From positions 2,634-66,633 of the forward strand of contig PLLJ01000011.1 in NCBI GenBank assembly GCA_003140935.1: a DNA stretch of 64,000 nt, written 5' to 3'. Shown one piece after another: positions 3,410-64,000 of the stretch (its first letter is position 1; each line of letters opens with the position of its first letter). Position numbers and translations under genes: made by a program. Under the pieces are notes generated by a model. It did not search any database and was not told the origin of the DNA. It saw only the letters and a list, made by a program, of their open reading frames with translations. Source of the DNA: Candidatus Omnitrophota bacterium. Lineage in GTDB: Bacteria; Omnitrophota; Omnitrophia; Omnitrophales; Aquincolibacteriaceae.

Positions 3410-3484
3410 GACTCCTCCTTAATTTAAAAATGAATTGAATATCATGACCGTTCAAACTTTTTATTTCTTTTCCAAAATGGTAAC

Positions 3485-3500
3485 TTGGATTGCCCCAAAG
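3485..3500 (+). repeat. degenerate 12-nt fragment (GGATTGCCCCAA) of the 95-nt repeat family
   Basis: TTGGATTGCCCCAAAG matches core of repeat copies A-D; only a fragment. Confidence 0.3.
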
Positions 3501-5446: not shown

Positions 5447-6340
5447 ATGAAGCGTTCGAAACTGTACTTTTCAGGCATTCAACTCATGTCTCAAAGCGCG
5501 ATCTGCTTTTCCATCATGGCGCTTTGCGTCAAATACGCGAGCATGTCGCTCTCTCCGTTTCAGATTGTTTTTTTCCGGAGTTTTTTCGGCACGCTGATAG
5601 TCCTTCCCTTCATCTGGCGTAAAAAGGTATCGCTCTGGGGTGAAGAACGACTCAAACTGACGTCCCGCGGCATCTGTGGCTTTGGCGCTCTGATCCTCCA
5701 CTTTTACACCATCGCCAAACTTGATCTTGGCCTTGCGATCATGCTCAATTATACGGCGCCTATTTTTACGGTGATCTTCTCGGTCTTCTTTTTGAAGGAG
5801 CGCCCGAGCCCCTCTCTTTGCTTTCTGATCTTTTTGTCCTTCGCCGGAGTGATCCTGCTGAATGCCCGTTCCGGAATAGCCTGGAGCCCGGCCGTATGGC
5901 TGGCGCTGCTTTCCTCGATCTTCGCCGCATTCGCTTATCTGTCGATCCGCACGATCCGGCAACGGGAGTCACCCTATACCGTGGTCTTTTATTTCACGCT
6001 GATCTCGACCGTGGGTTCGCTTTTTTTTCTGAAAGGATGGAAGTGGCCGGACCTCGGGGCCTGGGGATTGATCGCCGGCGTAGTGATCTTTTCTTTCTTC
6101 GGGCAGGTCTGGATGACCACCGCTTTGAGACGCGCACCGGCCTATCTGGTCACGCCATTCTCTTATCTTCATCCGGTGCTTTCGTTCGCCTATGGATGGC
6201 TGCTGTGGGGGGATGCCATCACCTGGATCACCGCGGCCGGCATCTTCCTGATCGTAGGAAGCGGCTCGCTCATTTCCTACTTTGAAACAAAACGCGAAAA
6301 AAAACTCCCCGCCTCCCTCTCGAGCGAATCCTGCCTCTAA
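5447..6340 (+). CDS. EamA/DMT-family transporter (10-TM permease)
   Basis: Two EamA-like repeats of hydrophobic helices; table ORF begins at alternative TTG (5411), first ATG at 5447 (alt 5486). Confidence 0.75.
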   Translation: MKRSKLYFSGIQLMSQSAICFSIMALCVKYASMSLSPFQIVFFRSFFGTLIVLPFIWRKKVSLWGEERLKLTSRGICGFGALILHFYTIAKLDLGLAIMLNYTAPIFTVIFSVFFLKERPSPSLCFLIFLSFAGVILLNARSGIAWSPAVWLALLSSIFAAFAYLSIRTIRQRESPYTVVFYFTLISTVGSLFFLKGWKWPDLGAWGLIAGVVIFSFFGQVWMTTALRRAPAYLVTPFSYLHPVLSFAYGWLLWGDAITWITAAGIFLIVGSGSLISYFETKREKKLPASLSSESCL

Positions 6341-6342
6341 GC

Positions 6343-7158
6343 TTACACCTTGGCGTCTTCGGTATCCGTTATTTTGAACGCTACGAACATATAGACCAAA
6401 TTGACCAGGATCATGACCACGAACGGCAATGGCAGCTTCCGGAGAGGCGTCATGATCTGAAGCCATGTCAGGGTGAATGACGCGGTCGTAGCAAAGCACG
6501 TGAGAGAAAAAATAGCTCCATAACGAAGTTTTTGCTTCCTCATCATGTTGAATAAAAGCCCGACAAGCGAATAAAGGAGATCCACGATCAGGAGGAAAAA
6601 GAAGAACAGGACGATCATCACGGGCGGAACGATCAAAAGCATCGTGCTTTTGATCACCTTAAAGAGACCTCCCACGACTGCACCGGTGATCCGGATCTTG
6701 GGCGGCAGCTGCTTATCCGTTTGGATCCCCGCCTTGGTAATATCCCGCTCTTCGATCTGCCCCGGCGCCCGCTTCATAAAAACTTTTGTCGATGTCACAA
6801 GCAAGGGGGCCTTGTCCATATCCGCTTCATTCGCGGATGTTTTAGTCATATCAAAAGCAACGAGCGGGCCATACTTGGGATGGGACAAAAGGGCGGTCGT
6901 CTGGCCATTCTCCAGAGAAATTCCCTCGGGCGTCCAGATCACGACCGGCATGGTTTTTTGAGCCCAGGAAACAAATTCATTTGCAACGGGCAACATCCGG
7001 CTCAGCATTAAAACCGTGATCAATACGCCAGCGATCACCGAAAGATAAAAAACATAAAGCACTCCCTTCCAAGCGGACCTTTTTGAGGCATCATGAAAAA
7101 CGCGCGGATGGAAAAGTGCGGTAACGGGAGCAAGCCAAAAAGAGAGAAGGTTATTCAT
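6343..7158 (-). CDS. hypothetical polytopic membrane protein (DUF1189-like)
   Basis: 271 aa with several TM segments; 8-nt overlap with greA stop. Confidence 0.55.
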   Translation of the reverse strand: MNNLLSFWLAPVTALFHPRVFHDASKRSAWKGVLYVFYLSVIAGVLITVLMLSRMLPVANEFVSWAQKTMPVVIWTPEGISLENGQTTALLSHPKYGPLVAFDMTKTSANEADMDKAPLLVTSTKVFMKRAPGQIEERDITKAGIQTDKQLPPKIRITGAVVGGLFKVIKSTMLLIVPPVMIVLFFFFLLIVDLLYSLVGLLFNMMRKQKLRYGAIFSLTCFATTASFTLTWLQIMTPLRKLPLPFVVMILVNLVYMFVAFKITDTEDAKV

Positions 7159-7728: not shown

Positions 7729-8811
7729 CTAGCGGAGCGAATAAGAACTATCCACCAAGCAAGGTTCAAACCCTGCATCCGTGGCACATCGGATCAGGTC
7801 GTCGGAACTTAACCCCTCGGGGGCACGACTCCCTGCTTCACGCATGACCTTTTCATGAAGATTTGTTCCGCCCACATCATCCGCGCCGAACGAAAGCGCG
7901 ACTTGAACGAACTTCAAATCCGTCGCCGAACCGTGAACTTTGATGTGAGAGATATTATCCAGAAGAAGTCTCGAAATAGAAAGCACTTTTAGGTCTAAAA
8001 AACCGCTTGTTCGTTCCATGCCCCGGAGCGCGTTATTTTCGGGATGATAGGCAAGCGGCACAAACGCATAAAATCCTTGCGTTTCATCCTGAAGCTCACG
8101 CAACTTCATAAGATGCGACACCCGTTGCTCATTGGTCTCGACGTGTCCGTAAAGCATGGTGGCGTTAGTTTTGATCCCCGCCTGATGCGCGACCCGGTGG
8201 ATCTCGATCCATGCTTCTCCCGATATTTTTCGGGGACAGATCTTGGCCCGCACCCCGGGATCAAAGATCTCAGCTCCACCACCCGGCATCCCGTCTAATC
8301 CGGCCTCTTTTAAGCGGCGCAAAACTTCAGCCCAGGAAAATCCCGACTGCTTGGTCATAAAATCGATTTCGGAAGCACTAAATGCTTTAATAAAAATTTC
8401 TTTCGGTAGCTGTCGTATGCGCCGTATCATTTCCAAAAAATAATCGAACTCAAGCGCGGGATTATGCCCCCCCACGATATGGACCTCGTTGATCTGCCAG
8501 CGATCGACCGCATCCCGGACTTTTTGTTCGATCTCATCCAGTGTCAGCGTGTAGGCGCCGGGCGCATCCGCATCGCGAGAAAAGGCGCAGAATTCGCAAC
8601 GGGTCGAGCAAATGTTTGTGGGATTGAGGTGAAGGTTCCGGGCATAAAAAGCATGCCGGCCATGCATCCGCTCGCGGACCTGATGCGCCATCCGGCCGAT
8701 CGCAAGAATATCCGTACTCTCAAAAAGCCGCACGCCGTCTTCAAAAGAAAGCCTTTCCTGATCCCGGACTTTTTGAAAGACATCCTTGATGAGATTTAAA
8801 GACCGATCCAT
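7729..8811 (-). CDS. radical SAM enzyme of the futalosine menaquinone pathway (MqnE/MqnC type)
   Basis: CSTRCEFCAF CxxxCxxC radical-SAM motif in a ~360 aa MqnC/MqnE/CofH-like architecture; MqnE vs MqnC not distinguishable by eye. Confidence 0.75.
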   Translation of the reverse strand: MDRSLNLIKDVFQKVRDQERLSFEDGVRLFESTDILAIGRMAHQVRERMHGRHAFYARNLHLNPTNICSTRCEFCAFSRDADAPGAYTLTLDEIEQKVRDAVDRWQINEVHIVGGHNPALEFDYFLEMIRRIRQLPKEIFIKAFSASEIDFMTKQSGFSWAEVLRRLKEAGLDGMPGGGAEIFDPGVRAKICPRKISGEAWIEIHRVAHQAGIKTNATMLYGHVETNEQRVSHLMKLRELQDETQGFYAFVPLAYHPENNALRGMERTSGFLDLKVLSISRLLLDNISHIKVHGSATDLKFVQVALSFGADDVGGTNLHEKVMREAGSRAPEGLSSDDLIRCATDAGFEPCLVDSSYSLR

Positions 8812-14040: not shown

Positions 14041-14134
14041 CTAGACTATCCTTGCCTAAAATTTTTCCCTAGATGGTTGGCAAGGATTGCCCCAATTTCA
14101 GATTTTCTGAAATTGATAAGAATTGGGACTAAAG
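14041..14134 (+). repeat. 95-nt hairpin-containing repeat element, copy A (gene-proximal end 3 nt before the AI-2E transporter ATG)
   Basis: GACTATCCTTGCC...GGTTGGCAAGGATTGCCCCAATTTCAGAttttCTGAAATTGATAAGAATTGGGACTAAAG; perfect 10-bp hairpin CAATTTCAGA/TCTGAAATTG; matches copies B, C, D in reverse complement. Confidence 0.85.
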
Positions 14135-14136
14135 CC

Positions 14137-15189
14137 ATGAAACGCGAGCAATTTATCTCTTTTTTCTTCATTGGCATCCTGGGTTTTATTGTCTACGAGG
14201 TTTTTAATATTTTCGCGCCGTTTTTCACGGCTATTTTCTGGGCGGCGATCCTCGCATTCGCATTTTATCCTCTCTATGAAAAACTGCGCAAATGGTTCCC
14301 TAAACGGAATAATTCCATCGCGCTCCTTATGACGCTCGCCGTGTTCCTCATCGTCGTCCCGCCGCTCATTTATGTCATCATCAACATGACCACCCAGGTC
14401 ATCGAATTTTCCCAGTGGGCTTACGGCTACGTTCGTGATGGAAAATTGGAACAGCTGGTCGAACAGGTCCGGACGCATCCCTGGTTCCAGAACATCCAGA
14501 CCCACATCTTCGCGTCACAAACGCTCAAAGAAAGCTTGTCTTCGTGGTCCCTCGGAACCATCAAGACTCTCGGAAATCTCGCCGCGACTCAGGCCGGGAC
14601 TTTTACCAAGAATATCTTCTTTGTCATTTTGAATGTTTTCTTCATGTCCTTCCTGACCTTCATTTTTTTTAAACATGGGGAAAGGATCTACAATTTCATT
14701 TACGAGATCGCGCCGTTCGAGAAAGAGACCAAAAAGGCTCTTTTCAAACAAATCCATGAAACGTTTGTCGCAGTCATCCGGGGACAACTCCTGACCAGCA
14801 TCACGCAGGCGGCCGTGGCGGGCATCATTTTCACAGCTTTGGGGGTCCCACTCCCGCTTTTTTTCACATTCCTGATCTTCCTGACCTCGCTCATCCCAAT
14901 CCTCGGCGCGGCAAGTGTGTGGTTTCCGATCGCAGTTTATCTTTTGATCATGCATCTCTATGGCAAGGCGATCGTTCTTTTCGTGCTGGGTTTTTTCGGG
15001 ATCAGCCTCATTGATAATTTCATGAAACCGGCCATCATCGGAGAGAGGACCAAACTTCCTTATTTTCTTCTTTTTTTTGGGATCATGGGCGGGATGAAAT
15101 TTTACGGCTTGATGGGGATCTTCCTGGCACCGGTAGTGCTCTCGATCTTCTTCGCCTTGATCAAGATCTACCGCGAGAAATACGTCTGA
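14137..15189 (+). CDS. AI-2E family transporter (PerM/YhhT-like permease)
   Basis: ~350 aa polytopic membrane protein with AI-2E family topology; table ORF over-extends through the repeat, true start MKREQF at 14137. Confidence 0.85.
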   Translation: MKREQFISFFFIGILGFIVYEVFNIFAPFFTAIFWAAILAFAFYPLYEKLRKWFPKRNNSIALLMTLAVFLIVVPPLIYVIINMTTQVIEFSQWAYGYVRDGKLEQLVEQVRTHPWFQNIQTHIFASQTLKESLSSWSLGTIKTLGNLAATQAGTFTKNIFFVILNVFFMSFLTFIFFKHGERIYNFIYEIAPFEKETKKALFKQIHETFVAVIRGQLLTSITQAAVAGIIFTALGVPLPLFFTFLIFLTSLIPILGAASVWFPIAVYLLIMHLYGKAIVLFVLGFFGISLIDNFMKPAIIGERTKLPYFLLFFGIMGGMKFYGLMGIFLAPVVLSIFFALIKIYREKYV

Positions 15190-16401: not shown

Positions 16402-16549
16402 AACTGTAATTCATTTTAACAGTCTGACAAGGGCACTGCAATAGCCCTTTCGCCCTTGAGGGAAAATAGATTTCCTTTTTATATCTAACTTGGCTATCAT
16501 AATAACATTCCTGTTTAAAGAGGCACGTGAATTTCTGAGGGCGCGCAAC

Positions 16550-17932
16550 ATGAGGATCACGGAGAAGACCCCGGCGGAAGAGATCTACAAAAAAGCCTAC
16601 CACCTCTACCAATTCCGCATCCTCACGATTCTCTTCCTCATTCCTCTTTATGTCTTGACCTGCAAATGGGGAAATTTCACGATCGAAAATCTTTGGTCGC
16701 TTTATGGCGTGATCGCGGTCGAGCTTTTCGTCAACCGCCCTTACAAGGTTTTTTTTCGCGATTCACGATCGGGGACCCAAGCCCTGATTGGTTCGGTTGG
16801 TATCGATTTTTTGGCAGAAACCGCCGCCCTGCATCTTTTGGGGAACGTCGATCTTTTCATTTTTACTTCCTGTTTCTTCATCTCCATCGTTTACTGCGCA
16901 TTGAATCTCCCGACCATCCTGACCCTGCAAATGGCCACACTCGCTTCGGCCCTGTATGCGGGGCTGATCGTTCTCGGACGTTTTCATATCATCCCCAACA
17001 CCGTCTCGCTCGGACCCGACTTGAATCAGGTCCAAGAAACCGCCATCATCTTCCGGCACATCGCTTTTTTCTACCTGATTGCGATTTTCATAAGTTTCCT
17101 GTCTTCCGCTCTCATGAAAAAGGACGAGCGTCTCGAGGAGCTCCTTCGGGAACTCCGGAGAACGAGCGATAAGGTCAAGTACGCTTATCATATACAGACT
17201 GATTATTTCGCCCGTATGAGTCACGAGATCCGGGCGCCGCTGAACTCGATCCTGGGCTTTTCCCAGCTCTTACTCGAAAACCCGACCGAACCGCTCACAG
17301 AAAAACAAAAAGATTTTCTCTCCCGTGTCGAGCGAAGCGCCAAACATCTTCGCGAACTGATCAATGATGTTCTCGATCTGTCAAAGATCGAGTCCAAAAA
17401 AGCGAGCCTGGAACTCCACGAGATCGAGCTTGTTAAGATCATCCATACAGCCATCGAAGTTTTTAATGAAGAAGCCCTCACGAAACGTCTGCTCTTGGGG
17501 TTTACAAAAAAACCGCTCAATCTCCGAATCATGGCGGACGAACTCAAGATCAGACAGGTGCTTTACAATCTCATTTCCAACTCCATCAAATTCACCCATC
17601 AAGGTTTTGTCTCTATTGCCTTGGAGAAAGAGACCGATGGCGGAGCAAGGATCATGGTGGAAGATTCGGGGCCCGGAATTGCCTCACAAGATCAAGCGGC
17701 TATCTTCCAGCCTTATGAGGTGACAGGGCGAACGATTGATAAGGGCGGCGGGAAGGGAACAGGATTGGGACTTGCCATCAGCAAAAAATTAGTGGAGATG
17801 CACGGCGGAAAGATCTGGGTCGAAAGTGAGCCCGGAAGAGGAGCCCGGTTCATTGTCACGCTCCCGCCGGTACCTCCGACGCCGAAGCCCGAGGGAAATG
17901 CCTTGCCAGCAGACCCCGCCGCGACCGATTAG
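16550..17932 (+). CDS. membrane sensor histidine kinase (HisKA + HATPase_c)
   Basis: N-terminal TM helices; H-box HEIRAPLNSILGF; N, G1, G2 boxes (DSGPGI, GGGKGTGLGLAISK); start at ATG 16550 with GAGGG RBS. Confidence 0.8.
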   Translation: MRITEKTPAEEIYKKAYHLYQFRILTILFLIPLYVLTCKWGNFTIENLWSLYGVIAVELFVNRPYKVFFRDSRSGTQALIGSVGIDFLAETAALHLLGNVDLFIFTSCFFISIVYCALNLPTILTLQMATLASALYAGLIVLGRFHIIPNTVSLGPDLNQVQETAIIFRHIAFFYLIAIFISFLSSALMKKDERLEELLRELRRTSDKVKYAYHIQTDYFARMSHEIRAPLNSILGFSQLLLENPTEPLTEKQKDFLSRVERSAKHLRELINDVLDLSKIESKKASLELHEIELVKIIHTAIEVFNEEALTKRLLLGFTKKPLNLRIMADELKIRQVLYNLISNSIKFTHQGFVSIALEKETDGGARIMVEDSGPGIASQDQAAIFQPYEVTGRTIDKGGGKGTGLGLAISKKLVEMHGGKIWVESEPGRGARFIVTLPPVPPTPKPEGNALPADPAATD

Positions 17933-18350: not shown

Positions 18351-18692
18351 TTATTTTGAAAGCTGTTGTTCGACGAAATCACCGACCACGGGTAGTTTGT
18401 AACGCTCACCTTTATAGGCCTTCACCATCAACACGATCCAGAGCACGATGCTTAGGGGCCAGAGAAGCAGGTTGGCCAGGACTCCCAGAACCGGAATGAA
18501 CCCGATGACCAAAGTGATGATGAAAAGACCGAGAAACGTCACGAGAGACTGCATCGCGTGGAAACGCACGAATGCATTTTTTTGCTCAAGCAACAGAAAA
18601 ACAAGCCCCGTGAGCCATCCCAAAGCATAGCAGAGAAGCCCTTCGAGATTTTCCGTGACACCCAAAACCGTATTTTTATTTTCGTCTGCCAT
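18351..18692 (-). CDS. DUF4870-family small membrane protein
   Basis: FHAMQS motif and 3 TM helices typical of DUF4870. Confidence 0.7.
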   Translation of the reverse strand: MADENKNTVLGVTENLEGLLCYALGWLTGLVFLLLEQKNAFVRFHAMQSLVTFLGLFIITLVIGFIPVLGVLANLLLWPLSIVLWIVLMVKAYKGERYKLPVVGDFVEQQLSK

Positions 18693-18711: not shown

Positions 18712-18872
18712 TAGTCCCAATTCTTATCAATTTCAGAGAATCAGAAATTGGGGCCATCTTTGTCCCAACCTTGTAAAAAACTCAAAGGTGGTTGGGACTA
18801 TACTGATTACCACTCATTTTAAATAAAAATCAGTATGTCTACCATTTGAGAAAAAAAGCCGAGACAAGGATA
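18712..18872 (-). repeat. repeat element copy B with ~70-nt internal insertion (gene-proximal end 19 nt upstream of DUF4870 ATG)
   Basis: TAGTCCCAATTCTTATCAATTTCAGAgaaTCAGAAATTGGGGCCATCTTTGTCCCAACC...GGTTGGGACTATA...GACAAGGATAG; flanking inverted ends TAGTCCCAA / TTGGGACTA. Confidence 0.8.
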
Positions 18873-19063
18873 GAAGTTCATTGTGGAATATTGTACCTTA
18901 CTTCCAGGAAAAAACGATACCCTTCTTTCTCTGACAAGATTAAAATAAGCCCGGTTTCGCCGACAATGTTCCACACCCGTTGTAAATATTAGACTTATAT
19001 ATGATGCACCGGATGTGGCAAGGGCGGCTACTTGCCCCCTGCATCCCAAAAAAGGAGACTGTT

Positions 19064-19459
19064 ATGCCTACCGTTTTCACCAAAATCCTTGCGGGAGAAA
19101 TTCCCGCCCACAAGATCCTCGAAAACGACGAATATCTCGCGTTCCTCGATATCCGTCCCATAAATCCCGGCCACACGCTCGTCATTCCAAAACAAGAGAT
19201 CGATTATATCTTTGATATTGAAGACGACCTTTTAAAGGGGCTCGTCGTCTTCGCTAAGAAGGTCGCCAAGGCCCTTGGCAAGACCATCCCCTGTAAGAAG
19301 GTCGGCGTAATGGTCGCAGGGTTGGAAGTCCCTCACGCCCACATTCATCTGATCCCGATCATAGAAAGTCTTGCTGAGCTTAATTTCGCGCGCGCAAAAG
19401 CCATGCCCCAGGAAGAACTTGCCGTGATCGCTGCCAAGATGCGGGCAAATCTAAAGTAG
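19064..19459 (+). CDS. HIT-family (histidine triad) nucleotide hydrolase
   Basis: HAHIHLIP histidine triad; GGAG RBS before ATG 19064. Confidence 0.85.
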   Translation: MPTVFTKILAGEIPAHKILENDEYLAFLDIRPINPGHTLVIPKQEIDYIFDIEDDLLKGLVVFAKKVAKALGKTIPCKKVGVMVAGLEVPHAHIHLIPIIESLAELNFARAKAMPQEELAVIAAKMRANLK

Positions 19460-33352: not shown

Positions 33353-35461
33353 TTAGAGAGGATAATCGAGCGCTTCCGGGATCATGACTTGCGCGACGGC
33401 TTCCGCAGCGCGATCCTTGGAAAAGCGCAGCCCTGAGAAACAGGCGTCGGTCTTCGCGCGCAACTCCGCGAAAGCCTTAAGTTCCGGACTCACCGTGGAG
33501 CAGCAATCGCTCGAAGCCTGATAGCCATAAATGAGATCGGCGCAGATTTTTCCGACTTCGCCCGCGGCCCGCGCGGACTGAACACCGCTCAGATCTGAGT
33601 AGAAATTCACCATGCCGGCAAGACCTTCCGCGAGCGTGGGATTCTCCGGACCTTTTTTCTCGAGCTCAAGAGTATCAAGGATGAGCTGGCGCGCGCCCAG
33701 GAGCCACGCGAGAGCATCGGTCATCGGAAACATCACGCCCTGGCGTTGCCCGCCATACAGTGTTTTCCCGTTCACGTCCTTGTGGGTCTGGAGATACTCA
33801 AGCGACCAGAGCCAAAGCTCCATCGCCCCGGCGAGGGCGCAGGCGCCCATTTCCGGTTTCCGCTTCGCGAGTTCCCGAAGATCCTTGATCCAGTTCTTGA
33901 ACTGGGCAAGAAAGATCTCGTTGACCATTGTCAGACTCAATTGGCGGCGTTGGACGCATTCCGGACCTTCATACGTCGCCTCAAGCTGGGCATCCGACCA
34001 TTTCTGTGTCAGGAATCCGGGACAATCTTCCGTGATGCCGTAACCGCCCATCAAACTCACGGCTTCGCGCATCATCGTGGCGCCATAGCCCGTATTCCAG
34101 AGCTTTCCCGCAGGACAGTACACGTCAGCGAGTGATTCCTTGATAAGGTACTGGACCAGAAGATCGCTTTCTAATTCCGCGATCCGCTTCACGTCACGCT
34201 TGGCCTCGGGCTTCGCCATGAGTTCGATATATTCGAGCGCTTTCTTGCGCGGTCCCATAAAGGCCTTCATCTGCGCGCGGGCGCCTTTGATCCCCTGTTC
34301 GTTGAAGATCTTATCCTTTTCGTGCTCCATCACATCGAAGGCATCGAAAAGCCGGGCTCCTTCGAACCCGAGAGACGCGCCCGCTTCCCCGGTCGCCCAA
34401 ACATCGACCAGACGGTGGCAGGGGTCCTCTTTCTGTTGAATGCCGAGATCATAGCGCGGAGTCCCCGGAGTGGCTGATTCCCCGCCGCGAAAACGCGTGC
34501 GTTGATAGCGGATCACGGGTTCGATCGCGGAAAGAAGCTTCGCGGTGGTCATGATCCCCACGGTCACGCGCGTGCGGCGGAATACCGCTTCGATCACTTC
34601 GCTGTTGCTGAAATTCGGAATGATCACACCGTCCTTCACCGTGTACCCGCCGATGATGCGGCTGGCCGGGACCTTCAGGTTAAAGATCGGATCATGCGTG
34701 CTGGAAAGCTGGTGCACAAGCTTCAGGGTCGGGGCACCGCGGTCATAAAGTCCGGGGTCATTTTCCTCGAGGATCACCATGCAGCTTGATTTGATACGGG
34801 GATCATCGCTATCCACGGAGGCGGTCACGAAATTCGCATAGCCCATATTGGTGATGAAACGGCCGCGCTTTTCGACCTGAAGGACCGGCTCCTTACCTTC
34901 TTTCCATTCCGCGATACGGATACGTCCGGAAAGCATGCCGGCGTCCACGCCGACATAAGGAAGCGGTTCCGTAAGCGCGAACGATCCCCGGATTATTTTC
35001 CGGTTCTCTCCGGGTTTCGGAGGAACGCATCCGCCCATATATTTCTGGATCTGCTCGGGAGTGCCTTTCTCGTGGATCGGCTCGAGCGCGAGGTTGTTCG
35101 CAAGGCTCGCCGTCGCGGCGCCGGCATCCACCCAGCAGAGTTCAAAAGCGATCATCGCGAGCACCAGGTTCTTCGGACCGGAGATATAACCTCCCTGCTC
35201 CGGTTCTATAAAAGCGGCCGTGATCCCCGCCTCGTCAAAAGCTTTGAGCATGGCGGCCTTCTCGGGCGTCCACTCATGGGTGTGGCGCTGCTTATCGGCC
35301 ACCATACGCGCAACAACTCCGCGCGCTACGGAGCGGGTGGACTGGACCACCATCTGAAGGTCATAACGGTCCGTAAACCGCCACATGATCTGGCGGACAT
35401 CGTCCCCAGGAAGCGTGCTCATTAAAGCTCTTTTCTCGGCATTGGCAGTACTCATGGACAT
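33353..35461 (-). CDS. large acyl-CoA dehydrogenase family protein (~700 aa)
   Basis: ACAD N, M and C domain homology in a long-chain ACAD-like architecture. Confidence 0.8.
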   Translation of the reverse strand: MSMSTANAEKRALMSTLPGDDVRQIMWRFTDRYDLQMVVQSTRSVARGVVARMVADKQRHTHEWTPEKAAMLKAFDEAGITAAFIEPEQGGYISGPKNLVLAMIAFELCWVDAGAATASLANNLALEPIHEKGTPEQIQKYMGGCVPPKPGENRKIIRGSFALTEPLPYVGVDAGMLSGRIRIAEWKEGKEPVLQVEKRGRFITNMGYANFVTASVDSDDPRIKSSCMVILEENDPGLYDRGAPTLKLVHQLSSTHDPIFNLKVPASRIIGGYTVKDGVIIPNFSNSEVIEAVFRRTRVTVGIMTTAKLLSAIEPVIRYQRTRFRGGESATPGTPRYDLGIQQKEDPCHRLVDVWATGEAGASLGFEGARLFDAFDVMEHEKDKIFNEQGIKGARAQMKAFMGPRKKALEYIELMAKPEAKRDVKRIAELESDLLVQYLIKESLADVYCPAGKLWNTGYGATMMREAVSLMGGYGITEDCPGFLTQKWSDAQLEATYEGPECVQRRQLSLTMVNEIFLAQFKNWIKDLRELAKRKPEMGACALAGAMELWLWSLEYLQTHKDVNGKTLYGGQRQGVMFPMTDALAWLLGARQLILDTLELEKKGPENPTLAEGLAGMVNFYSDLSGVQSARAAGEVGKICADLIYGYQASSDCCSTVSPELKAFAELRAKTDACFSGLRFSKDRAAEAVAQVMIPEALDYPL

Positions 35462-35512: not shown

Positions 35513-35607
35513 TTATAGTCCCAATTCTTATCAATTTCAGAGAATCTGAAATTGGGGCAATCCTTGCCAACCCTTTAGGAAAAGAATGAAAGACAAGGAT
35601 AGGACCT
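35513..35607 (-). repeat. repeat element copy C (gene-proximal end ~50 nt upstream of acyl-CoA dehydrogenase ATG)
   Basis: TATAGTCCCAATTCTTATCAATTTCAGAgaaTCTGAAATTGGGGCAATCCTTGCCAACCctttaggaaaagaatgaaaGACAAGGATAGGACC; perfect 10-bp hairpin plus second stem GGCAATCCTTGCC/GACAAGGATAGG. Confidence 0.85.
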
Positions 35608-51572: not shown

Positions 51573-51858
51573 AATTAGATCCTATCAGTTTGGCCAACGC
51601 TTCCATGGCTTCCGCGGCATCCTTGCCGGTCACGCGCACCGTAATCGACGCTCCCATTTCGGCCGCAAGGGTCATAATGCCCATGATCGATTTGCCGTCG
51701 GTCTGGATATCTTCCTTTTGAACCTCGACCGACGCTTCAAACCGGTTGGCCGTTTGGACAAAAACGGCAGCAGGCCGGGCATGAAGACCCAGTTTGTTGC
51801 CGATAATAAAAATTCGTTCGATCGACTGTTGCTTGTTTTTTTTGGGTCGTTTCGTCAT
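51562..51858 (-). CDS. ptsH: phosphocarrier protein HPr (with short basic N-terminal extension)
   Basis: GLHARPAAVF active-site His15 region; Ser46 region KSIMGIMTL. Confidence 0.85.
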   Translation of the reverse strand: MTKRPKKNKQQSIERIFIIGNKLGLHARPAAVFVQTANRFEASVEVQKEDIQTDGKSIMGIMTLAAEMGASITVRVTGKDAAEAMEALAKLIGSNFGE

Positions 51859-51951
51859 GATCTTCCTTAATTAAAAAAAATGAATCAGAAATTATGACAG
51901 TCCAAGTCGCCCTTACTAAAAAGAAACAAAGACTTGGGCATCACGGCCTCA

Positions 51952-63545: not shown

Positions 63546-63562
63546 GGGAATCAGTTCCGGAT

Positions 63563-63657
63563 AGCCCCAATACCAATCAATCGAAGCAAAGCTGAGATTG
63601 GGGCAATCCTTGTCAACCATTTTGGAAATAAAATCTTAGACAAGGATAGCCCCGTCA
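63563..63657 (-). repeat. repeat element copy D, diverged (gene-proximal end 18 nt upstream of DUF3108 ATG; distal arm overlaps stop of next gene)
   Basis: CCCCAATACCAATCAATCGAAGCaaaGCTGAGATTGGGGCAATCCTTGTCAACCattttggaaataaaatcttaGACAAGGATAGCCCC; second stem GGGGCAATCCTTGTC/GACAAGGATAGCCCC (14/15 bp). Confidence 0.8.
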
Positions 63658-64000
63658 AGACCGATCACGACCCTTTTTATGGGAAGACGTGTCCCGGAGA
63701 GCTCGACCGCTTCCTGAACCATGCGAAAAAGACCGGAACAGCACGGCACTTCCATGATCACCACGGTAAGCGAATAAATAGTGTTGTTCTTGAGAAGTTC
63801 CGCGATCTTTTCGACATAACCGCCGGTTTCATCAAGCTTAGGACAAGCGATCACGAGTTTCTTTCCTTTGAGCATATCTTGATGGAAACTCCCGAGCGTA
63901 AAAGCCGTACAATCGGCTGCGATCAAAAGATCGCATTCCTTGAAATAGGGCGCGAGCGGCGAGATCAGATGGAGCTGGATCGGCCATTGACTGAGCTCGG
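63636..64000 (-). CDS. C-terminal part of an Fe-S cluster protein (runs off window end)
   Basis: ...IAADCTAFTLGSFHQDMLKGKKLVIACPKLDETGGY...MEVPCCSGL; Cys-rich motifs of Fe-S oxidoreductase-like proteins; N-terminus outside window. Confidence 0.45.
   Translation of the reverse strand, partial: ELSQWPIQLHLISPLAPYFKECDLLIAADCTAFTLGSFHQDMLKGKKLVIACPKLDETGGYVEKIAELLKNNTIYSLTVVIMEVPCCSGLFRMVQEAVELSGTRLPIKRVVIGLDGAILV

Follow-up and report, generated by a model that had tools for sequence, protein, structure and literature searches.

The systems closest to the repeats considered here are REP/BIME sequences with RAYT (TnpA-REP) and the IS200/IS605 elements. The latter are normally biased in orientation relative to replication; for REP-like repeats, clean pairs of empty and occupied sites are rare. 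Other parallels are found among ERIC, Correia (NEMIS), BOX and RUP, modular intergenic repeats of 100-150 nt that are co-transcribed with their neighbours (Correia and RUP have terminal inverted repeats, and Correia duplicates TA), and among integron attC sites, which are recombined as folded single strands and have RYYYAAC...GTTRRRY arms.

Guide tetranucleotides 5' of palindromes select the cleavage and target sites of IS200/IS605 elements by DNA-DNA pairing (PMC8266576, PMC5934647, PMC3597680); in IS608, in particular, both target and cleavage sites are picked by pairing with the guide 5' of the hairpin (PMC8266576, PMC5934647). For REPs, GTAG 5' of the palindrome has been proposed as a cleavage-site guide, and the spread of REP-like hairpin repeats is still described as poorly understood (PMC8266576). 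Several insertion sequences (IS1397, ISKpn1, ISPa11, ISPpu9/10) insert at one fixed position in the REP hairpin (PMC1525189, PMC12288879).

Here we describe a repeat family from a 64,000-nt stretch of Candidatus Omnitrophota DNA that was analyzed at its full length (the window). One of its copies, copy B, is very probably a mobile composite with a nested insertion. The family resembles REP/BIME in consisting of short, intergenic hairpins, of high copy number by extrapolation, with compensatory stems and mosaic or tandem units; a possibly comparable tetranucleotide stands directly 5' of the palindrome (NTAG in this family, GTAG in REPs, whose palindromes measure 20-40 nt and whose copies exceed 100 per genome). 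Unlike REP/BIME, it is built of two different AT-rich hairpins in direct order (42 + 42 nt) with no inverted pairs, its orthologous sites are cleanly either empty or occupied and show a 3-nt repeat, its triplet (TAG, CGG, CTG, CAG or CCG) varies with the internal linker, and no RAYT gene was seen in the sampled DNA. With IS200/IS605 and their PATE-type derivatives the family shares subterminal hairpins, supported here by covariation, the lack of terminal inverted repeats, and insertion beside a short specific sequence without classical duplication, with an intact empty site possible. It differs from them in the size of only ~84 nt and in the identical junction triplets, which appear to read one linker; moreover, no replication-strand orientation bias was detected in this family, and no TnpA was found in the DNA sampled.

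As in the case of ERIC, Correia, BOX and RUP, an internal block distinguishes long forms from short ones, but we know of no case in which the block of those repeats is an independently inserting element. The insertion sequences targeting REPs also occupy one fixed point inside the hairpin of a resident repeat; those, however, are full-size and carry a transposase gene, while the invader here is a non-coding sequence of 75 nt related to its host. The insert motif TCCCAAC...GTTGGGA fits the attC consensus at 6/7 positions per arm (our own comparison). Unlike attC sites, members of this family occur singly in intergenic DNA or in gene-less arrays, with no cassettes and no integrase context, and the resemblance is probably coincidental.

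Copy B and other copies in the window

Copy B (18712-18873) matches the ~87-nt repeat and contains 75 extra nucleotides compared with the short copies A, C and D, which served as the reference for sizing this extra DNA (Table 1). An earlier sequence-only reading had noticed an insertion of ~70 nt in this copy; it is real, and its measured length is 75 nt. The conserved distal arm, placed by that reading at ~18862, was found as GACAAGGATAG at 18863-18873, and the complement of the 5' end of the element is indeed present inside the insert, as GGTTGGGACTATA at 18790-18802, one base off the earlier figure. The second hairpin reported within the insertion is formed by ATACTGATT (18800-18808) and AATCAGTAT (18828-18836), a perfect pairing of 9 bp. 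A further local pairing had been overlooked: GTCCCAACC (18762-18770) pairs perfectly with GGTTGGGAC (18790-18798), forming 9 bp with a 19-nt loop. Three perfect 9-bp inverted repeats are thus present in 160 nt, with ~0.05 expected by chance according to our own estimate, and the core 16-mer has 5 matches in the window against 0.78 expected.

Table 1. Features of copy B, its flanking genes and the other copies of the family in the window
Feature	Positions	Strand	Evidence and remarks
TAG, left-junction triplet of copy B	18712-18714	+	target triplet or 5' copy of a direct repeat; single TAG kept in empty L201, L202
Host 5' part, first hairpin unit (alpha)	18715-18762	+	covariance model R1, 59 bits; inverted repeat; covariation
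Alpha, outer pairing	18715-18721 (TCCCAAT) with 18747-18753 (ATTGGGG)	+	can pair
Alpha, inner hairpin	18728-18737 (CAATTTCAGA) with 18741-18750 (TCAGAAATTG)	+	
Linker CCA	18754-18756	+	
Start of second stem, ATCTTTG	18756-18762	+	
Probable nested 75-nt mini-element, TCCCAACC...CAGTATG	18763-18837	+	missing from orthologous short copy in L036
Host 3' part: remainder of second-stem loop, 3' strand GACAAGGAT (18863-18871), TAG (18871-18873)	18838-18873	+	repeat family; pattern match
DUF4870 membrane-protein gene	18351-18692	-	Pfam PF09685, E 3e-11
HIT-family gene, other side of the intergenic region	19064-19459	+	Pfam PF01230, E 1e-21
Copy A, short	14046-14132	-	covariance model, 101.7 bits; 4 nt upstream of AI-2E transporter gene (14137-15189)
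Copy C, short	35515-35602	+	covariance model, 107.6 bits; upstream of acyl-CoA-dehydrogenase-like gene (33353-35461, minus strand; Pfam)
Copy D, short, variant first hairpin	63561-63649	+	covariance model, 97.5 bits; between two minus-strand genes
Divergent copy, TCATGAT subfamily	51851-51941	+	covariance model, 34.4 bits
Degenerate remnant: second-hairpin unit, then TCATGAT-type first-hairpin start	3410-3499	-	match with 3 mismatches; inverted repeats

Thermodynamic folding of copy B permits long-range as well as local pairing. The sequence TAGTCCCAA at 18712-18720 has a perfect complement, TTGGGACTA, at 18792-18800, and the core 18712-18803 had accordingly been taken for a unit with inverted ends. 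This interpretation is not supported, as the CTA does not covary with the host 5' triplet: the trailing CTA after GGTTGGGA stays CTA even in hosts with CGG or CCG ends. The inverted match is present because the first hairpin of the insert (GTCCCAACC/GGTTGGGAC) reuses the TCCCAA/TTGGGA motif of the host first hairpin, and we read it as shared use of a motif, not as an element boundary. In the second stem, ATCTTTGTC (18756-18764) pairs with GACAAGGAT with one T.G wobble. The start codon of the DUF4870 gene lies 19 nt beyond the left junction triplet and 22 nt from the element body.

The genes adjoining the copies in the window (according to Pfam, DUF4870, HIT, AI-2E transporter, acyl-CoA-dehydrogenase-like, DUF3108 and T2SSE ATPase genes) are functionally unrelated, and a common regulon was rejected on this ground. 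The copies are found in either orientation relative to adjacent genes, often 0-25 nt from a start codon. A minus-strand open reading frame (63636-63926) takes its five final codons (G A I L V) and its stop, TAA, from the 3' end of copy D (63636-63649). The divergent copy at 51851-51941 reads TCATGAT...ATTATGA and then TCCAAGTC...GACTTGGG, and is similar to L035:195-281 and to members of its subfamily that are inserted, in L014 and L075, in a conserved non-coding region (see below). In the degenerate remnant, a response-regulator-like gene has its Shine-Dalgarno sequence and its ATG in the loop and the 3' arm of the TCATGAT...TCATGG hairpin. No tRNA genes were detected in the 64-kb window, nor was a tmRNA found.

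Distribution and structure of the family

No matches to Rfam were obtained at the gathering score in the window and five related loci, and at E<=10 the segment 18600-19000 yielded just two noise matches; a literature search for Omnitrophota repeats found no description. The family thus appears previously undescribed. Scanning one genome per species with a conserved 18-mer gave chance matches in many phyla and repeated full-length matches in Candidatus Omnitrophota MAGs, and the element is present in at least 16 Candidatus Omnitrophota assemblies. With nhmmer and the covariance model R1, ~70 copies were identified in 43 loci of these 16 assemblies, totalling 350 kb. The density, ~1 copy per 13 kb when the copy used to select each locus is excluded, equals that in the window. 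Among the copies in genome loci, ~60 of 65 are short. The window shows 87% identity over 8 kb to L036 (JBDRCT01), its closest relative at site B (see below), and ~80% to L106 (JBAYVF01), both from Omnitrophota.

The ~84-nt host element has the consensus TAG / TCCCAAT-wcytAT-CAATTTCAGA-gaa-TCTGAAATTG-GGG / CAA / TCCTTGTC-(23-nt loop)-GACAAGGA / TAG. In an alignment of 60 copies, standard pairs make up 97.1% of 1134 pair cells and 16 of 19 stem pairs show changes on both sides, the alignment being fitted to the model and thus somewhat favouring structure. None of 500 column shuffles reaches any of the stem measures, and slid partners pair in only 31-46% of cases. The range of stem-2 sequences is nonetheless unambiguous, the variants being ATCCTTGTC/GACAAGGAT, GTCCTGACT/AGTCAGGAC, GCCCAAGCC/GACTTGGGC and GTCCCGGCG/CGCCGGGGC. 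The 5' arm TCCCAAT is able to pair with ATTGGGG, and L035:195-281, which has TCATGAT...ATCATGG instead, represents a triple compensatory change. Wobble pairs show a modest asymmetry in the host (34 G.T vs 15 A.C) and none that is clear in the insert, and strand assignment from them was rejected.

In L101 (7731-7988), whole elements are arranged head to tail (period 84, 2.6 copies, 97% identity), and the array then continues with units, spaced at 42, that contain the first hairpin only. This arrangement shows that the hairpin units, alpha and beta, are separable modules, and the element as a whole is best regarded as a pair of such units of ~42 nt each. A sigma-54 or sigma-70 promoter in the conserved block TTGGGGCAATCCTTGTC was considered and rejected: copies B and D lack either the right spacing or the -12 GC, and scanning with the consensus gave no candidates above shuffles.

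Occupancy of orthologous sites

Site B, the DUF4870/HIT intergenic region, was compared across the window, L036, L201, L202, L203 and L204. It is empty in L201 (79-83% identity), L202 (74-82%) and L203 (72-79%), contains a short copy in L036 (87%) and a long one in the window. A single TAG is present in the empty relatives, where the sequence is ...CTTATTCTT TAG AATCTCACC... DNA for this comparison was obtained for four of 955 DUF4870 homologues. As all three outgroups are empty, the host insertion at this site is derived. The final step may have been either gain of the insert in the window lineage or its precise loss in L036, parsimony fitting both. In the more distant relative L204 (~950-1200), site B has a different insertion of ~70 nt (AAGTTACTTTTCATGAAAAAATAAGGGCTTGGGCCCATACTACC...) from outside the family. 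Faster turnover of the element body than of the flanks at site B (69-77% vs 85% identity) was also considered and set aside, the number of sites being too small.

Two other sites show the same kind of polymorphism. Site A, upstream of the AI-2E transporter gene, is empty in L036, where one CTG is kept (...CGCTAGA CTG AAGCCATG), short in the window (TAG type) and in L106 (CAG type), and long in L137, whose host holds the same nested insert of 75 nt. Site T, upstream of the T2SSE gene, is empty in the window and L036 (CATTT TAA CAGTCTG) and occupied by a long copy in L106 (CATTT TAG[...]TAG CCGCCGG), with no short copy seen. At all three sites the occupancy boundaries are base-exact in syntenic relatives.

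Since related genomes hold the same site empty, singly or doubly occupied, the family has moved recently, in agreement with the earlier suggestion that it is, or once was, mobile. The empty sites and flanking direct repeats which that suggestion called for are both present, the repeats being the 3-nt TAG around the host and TGTC around the insert. Being multi-copy and polymorphic in presence with exact boundaries at three sites, the family has the general properties of non-autonomous mobile elements; at 84-163 nt, its members are too short for a transposase gene.

Moreover, a conserved non-coding region of ~450 nt is interrupted by elements at several points that are uninterrupted in other genomes, each insertion lying 3' of a triplet that matches the element's own end. 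This region was observed with 1-3 element insertions in L014, L018, L022, L035, L039, L059, L061 and L075 (e.g. L075 ~5950-6650), and with a variant upstream part in L034 and L045. It is purine-rich, with repeated GACGAGG-like motifs and a long-range stem of 13 bp (GGCGGGAAGTGTG...CACACTTCCCGCC); its flanking genes vary by genome, and it is often found at contig ends. It has no Rfam match and contains no tRNA, and is probably an undescribed structured RNA gene.

The nested 75-nt insert

Compared with the orthologous short copy, the 5' strand of stem 2 is interrupted after CCTTG by the insert, whose last bases are ...CAGTATG, the host resuming as TC-ACCATTT. TGTC is present at both insert junctions and once in uninterrupted hosts, and because of this repetition the exact boundary slides by 2-4 nt. 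The insert follows the same grammar as the host, starting with TCCCAA, containing two hairpins and having an xTG end beside a TTG target.

Scanning metagenomes with a 17-mer internal to the insert gave ~22 further family copies, which together with L069, L102 and L106 makes ~25 copies from other genomes and metagenomes. The insert is always located at CCTTG/TC of the second stem; its hosts represent at least three subtypes of termini (TAG, TGG, CGG/CCG), and no insert outside a host was found among these ~25 copies. In 22 sequences, 97.7% of its stem positions are paired and two pairs are compensatory; the variation among them is small because the search fixed one arm per stem.

In the alignment of copies the short form is the commoner one, and the extra 75 nt form a discrete module at one point of the host. 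Recurrence at one point, in at least three host subtypes and never alone, argues for a nested, related mini-element. Hence the sequence-only reading was right in seeing a nested insertion, while its other suggestion, partial re-insertion of the host itself, is not supported, a related mini-element being present instead. Since long and short forms swap at sites A and B, the insert would move independently, homing to its site, and the composite may also spread as one unit.

Some hosts of the insert are rearranged: L134 is truncated at the 5' end, and L151 lacks the host 5' half. Comparison of L151 (~2840-2960) with the orthologous L122 (~2780-2960) shows that this half was lost exactly between two G/TCCCAA repeats, the remnant being the insert fused to the host 3' half.

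When read on the minus strand, the insert contains TAG/TCCCAACC...GGTTGGGA/CAA, a canonical first-unit signature. Thus an inverted, permuted origin of the first unit of the insert may be considered as an alternative to the forward reading.

Termini and linker covariation

Terminal inverted repeats are absent from host and insert alike, the host ends TCCCAATWC... and ...GACAAGGA having just TCC/GGA in common. Of 63 copies, 51 have identical 5' and 3' triplets. Base one of the triplet can pair with base three of the linker (N46) in 62/63 copies for the 5' triplet (N2) and in 61/63 for the 3' triplet (N87). The triplet/linker/triplet subtypes are TAG/CAA/TAG, the usual one, CGG/CCG/CGG, CTG/CTG/CTG, CAG/CAG/CAG and CCG/CGG/CCG; the junction triplet is limited to YNG. 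Both junction triplets covary with the linker C-N-N, which immediately precedes stem 2 on its 5' side, and both appear to face this one linker, a left-end geometry unlike that of IS608. NTAG (or YNG) directly precedes the first hairpin, and the second one is preceded by GCAA, not GTAG. Neighbouring units in tandem arrays have one triplet, TAG, in common (L101).

Identity between the left flank and the 3' end beyond 3 nt is no more frequent than chance. Accordingly, extended target mimicry (>3 nt), seen over 7 nt in L018 and L161, was rejected, the overall distribution being at chance level. In L161 (8406-8648), a long-form element abuts tRNA-Ala (8574-8648) and its left flank repeats the 7 nt with which the tRNA starts (GGGCCTG), so the element lies inside the tRNA 5' end, with its own 3' end restoring the tRNA.

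Possible mechanism and alternative explanations

Copy B is likely a composite of two small non-coding mobile elements, both of which belong to a family abundant across Candidatus Omnitrophota. The host, with its units TCCCAAT...ATTGGGG, the 3-nt linker, TCCTTGTC...GACAAGGA and the TAG end, would have inserted first, directly 3' of TAG in the DUF4870/HIT intergenic region. Later, the 75-nt element would have inserted at CCTTG/TC in the 5' strand of the host second stem.

As for the enzyme, we tentatively suggest, by analogy with IS200/IS605 or REP/RAYT, a mechanism that has somewhat less than an even chance of being correct: the elements may be mobilised in trans as folded single strands, with the junction triplet read by base pairing with the linker. 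This is suggested by the combination of absent inverted termini, structure-conserved hairpins, a triplet covarying at the hairpin foot and intact empty sites with a single triplet. In a tblastn search, three probes (IS200, IS608 and RAYT) matched neither the window nor ~350 kb of Omnitrophota loci, which is a small sample; the same probes matched the unrelated loci L111 and L002. No autonomous copy, in which a gene would lie between the first and second hairpins, was seen in 454 kb. The element-oriented GC skew is positive in 31 and negative in 38 of 69 copies, i.e. shows no bias, though on 8-kb fragments this test is weak. These three results and the geometry, with one linker facing both triplets, speak against plain membership of the IS200/IS605 or REP/RAYT groups, and the modest asymmetry of wobble pairs is a further point against the mechanism.

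Within the window, the GC skew is negative in every 4-kb segment of 1-64000 (-0.02 to -0.125), so the window lies on one replichore with a C-rich plus strand. Replication-linked orientation was rejected, as the skew shows no switch between minus- and plus-strand copies of the window and there is no bias over the 69 copies. The gene at 16490-17932 is a histidine kinase rather than DnaA.

A serious rival as regards the enzyme, if an unlikely one in our judgement, is site-specific recombination via a short identical core in the style of IS110/IS1111, IS607 or an integrase. A circular form and a target with the same 3-nt core would then recombine, leaving the core at both junctions, and the linker pairing would be merely a part of stem 2. 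Such recombination agrees with the presence of the same triplet at both junctions and once in empty sites, with the single triplet common to tandem units, and with the lack of both terminal inverted repeats and replication orientation bias; moreover, IS110-family elements target REP hairpins (PMC1525189, PMC12288879). It does not by itself explain the complementarity of the 5' triplet and the linker in 62/63 copies, although the latter is possibly a by-product. Recombinase genes were not seen in the vicinity of any of the copies, and the hairpin covariation suggests a folded single strand rather than recognition of a duplex.

A DDE transposase that acts on a classical MITE and duplicates 3 bp of the target site is a weaker candidate than a core recombinase, and an improbable one. 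Small, non-coding, intergenic, multi-copy elements with a 3-nt direct repeat, one copy of which is seen in empty sites, would be expected of a MITE, but terminal inverted repeats of at least ~10 bp are absent, given that only TCC/GGA is common to both ends. Besides, only YNG triplets occur, and in 61-62 of 63 copies they pair with an internal base, which a duplication derived from the target should not do. IS630-type duplication of TA at CTAG was also rejected, as other subtypes carry CGG, CTG, CAG or CCG.

Very improbable is a structured RNA, cis-regulatory or small, in which the 75 nt would be an optional expansion of a variable loop and not mobile DNA. The strong compensatory variation, conservation in at least 16 species, the many copies ending 0-25 nt from a start codon and the modest G.U excess on one strand would all suit an RNA, and in many places the elements must be transcribed within neighbouring mRNAs. 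However, close relatives differ in whether an orthologous site is empty, short or long, and the boundaries are exact; the copies occur in both orientations relative to genes, beside unrelated neighbours and in tandem arrays; and insertions are found at the 5' end of a tRNA and within a second conserved region that is non-coding, with no Rfam match. A purely RNA-level explanation thus fails on the presence/absence data.

Least probable of all, the long form could be ancestral and the short forms its deletion derivatives, as internal deletion between repeated G/TCCCAA motifs does occur (L151) and parsimony at site B, taken by itself, favours neither gain in the window nor loss in L036, but short forms outnumber long ones ~15:1 in unbiased genome loci, the insert has its own start motif, two hairpins, xTG end and TGTC flanks in hosts of at least three terminal subtypes, long and short forms swap between relatives at 2 of 3 orthologous sites examined, and deriving short from long needs base precision every time, which is itself excision.

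Significance of the family

The probable composite of two mobile elements and the family to which it belongs have two notable properties, the linker-triplet covariation and the dedicated nested mini-element. Pairs of empty and occupied sites are available at several orthologous positions in an uncultured phylum. The covariation of triplet and linker across subfamilies gives a testable rule, namely that an altered linker should alter the insertion triplet. The mini-element, in turn, is a case of one non-coding element parasitising another at one fixed position.

The repeats also lie close to many start codons, contribute stops, cut into a conserved non-coding region and fragment MAG assemblies, so annotation of Omnitrophota genomes should mask and record them.

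It is conceivable, though less likely than not, that Omnitrophota harbour an unrecognised class of minimal guide-programmed single-strand DNA transposons, together with a 75-nt 'hyperparasite' homing into the stem of its host. If so, the 3 nt of the internal linker would determine where both cleavages take place and which triplet is used for insertion, with other linkers leading to other triplets, and the family would provide natural before-and-after junctions for studying the spread of REP-like DNA.
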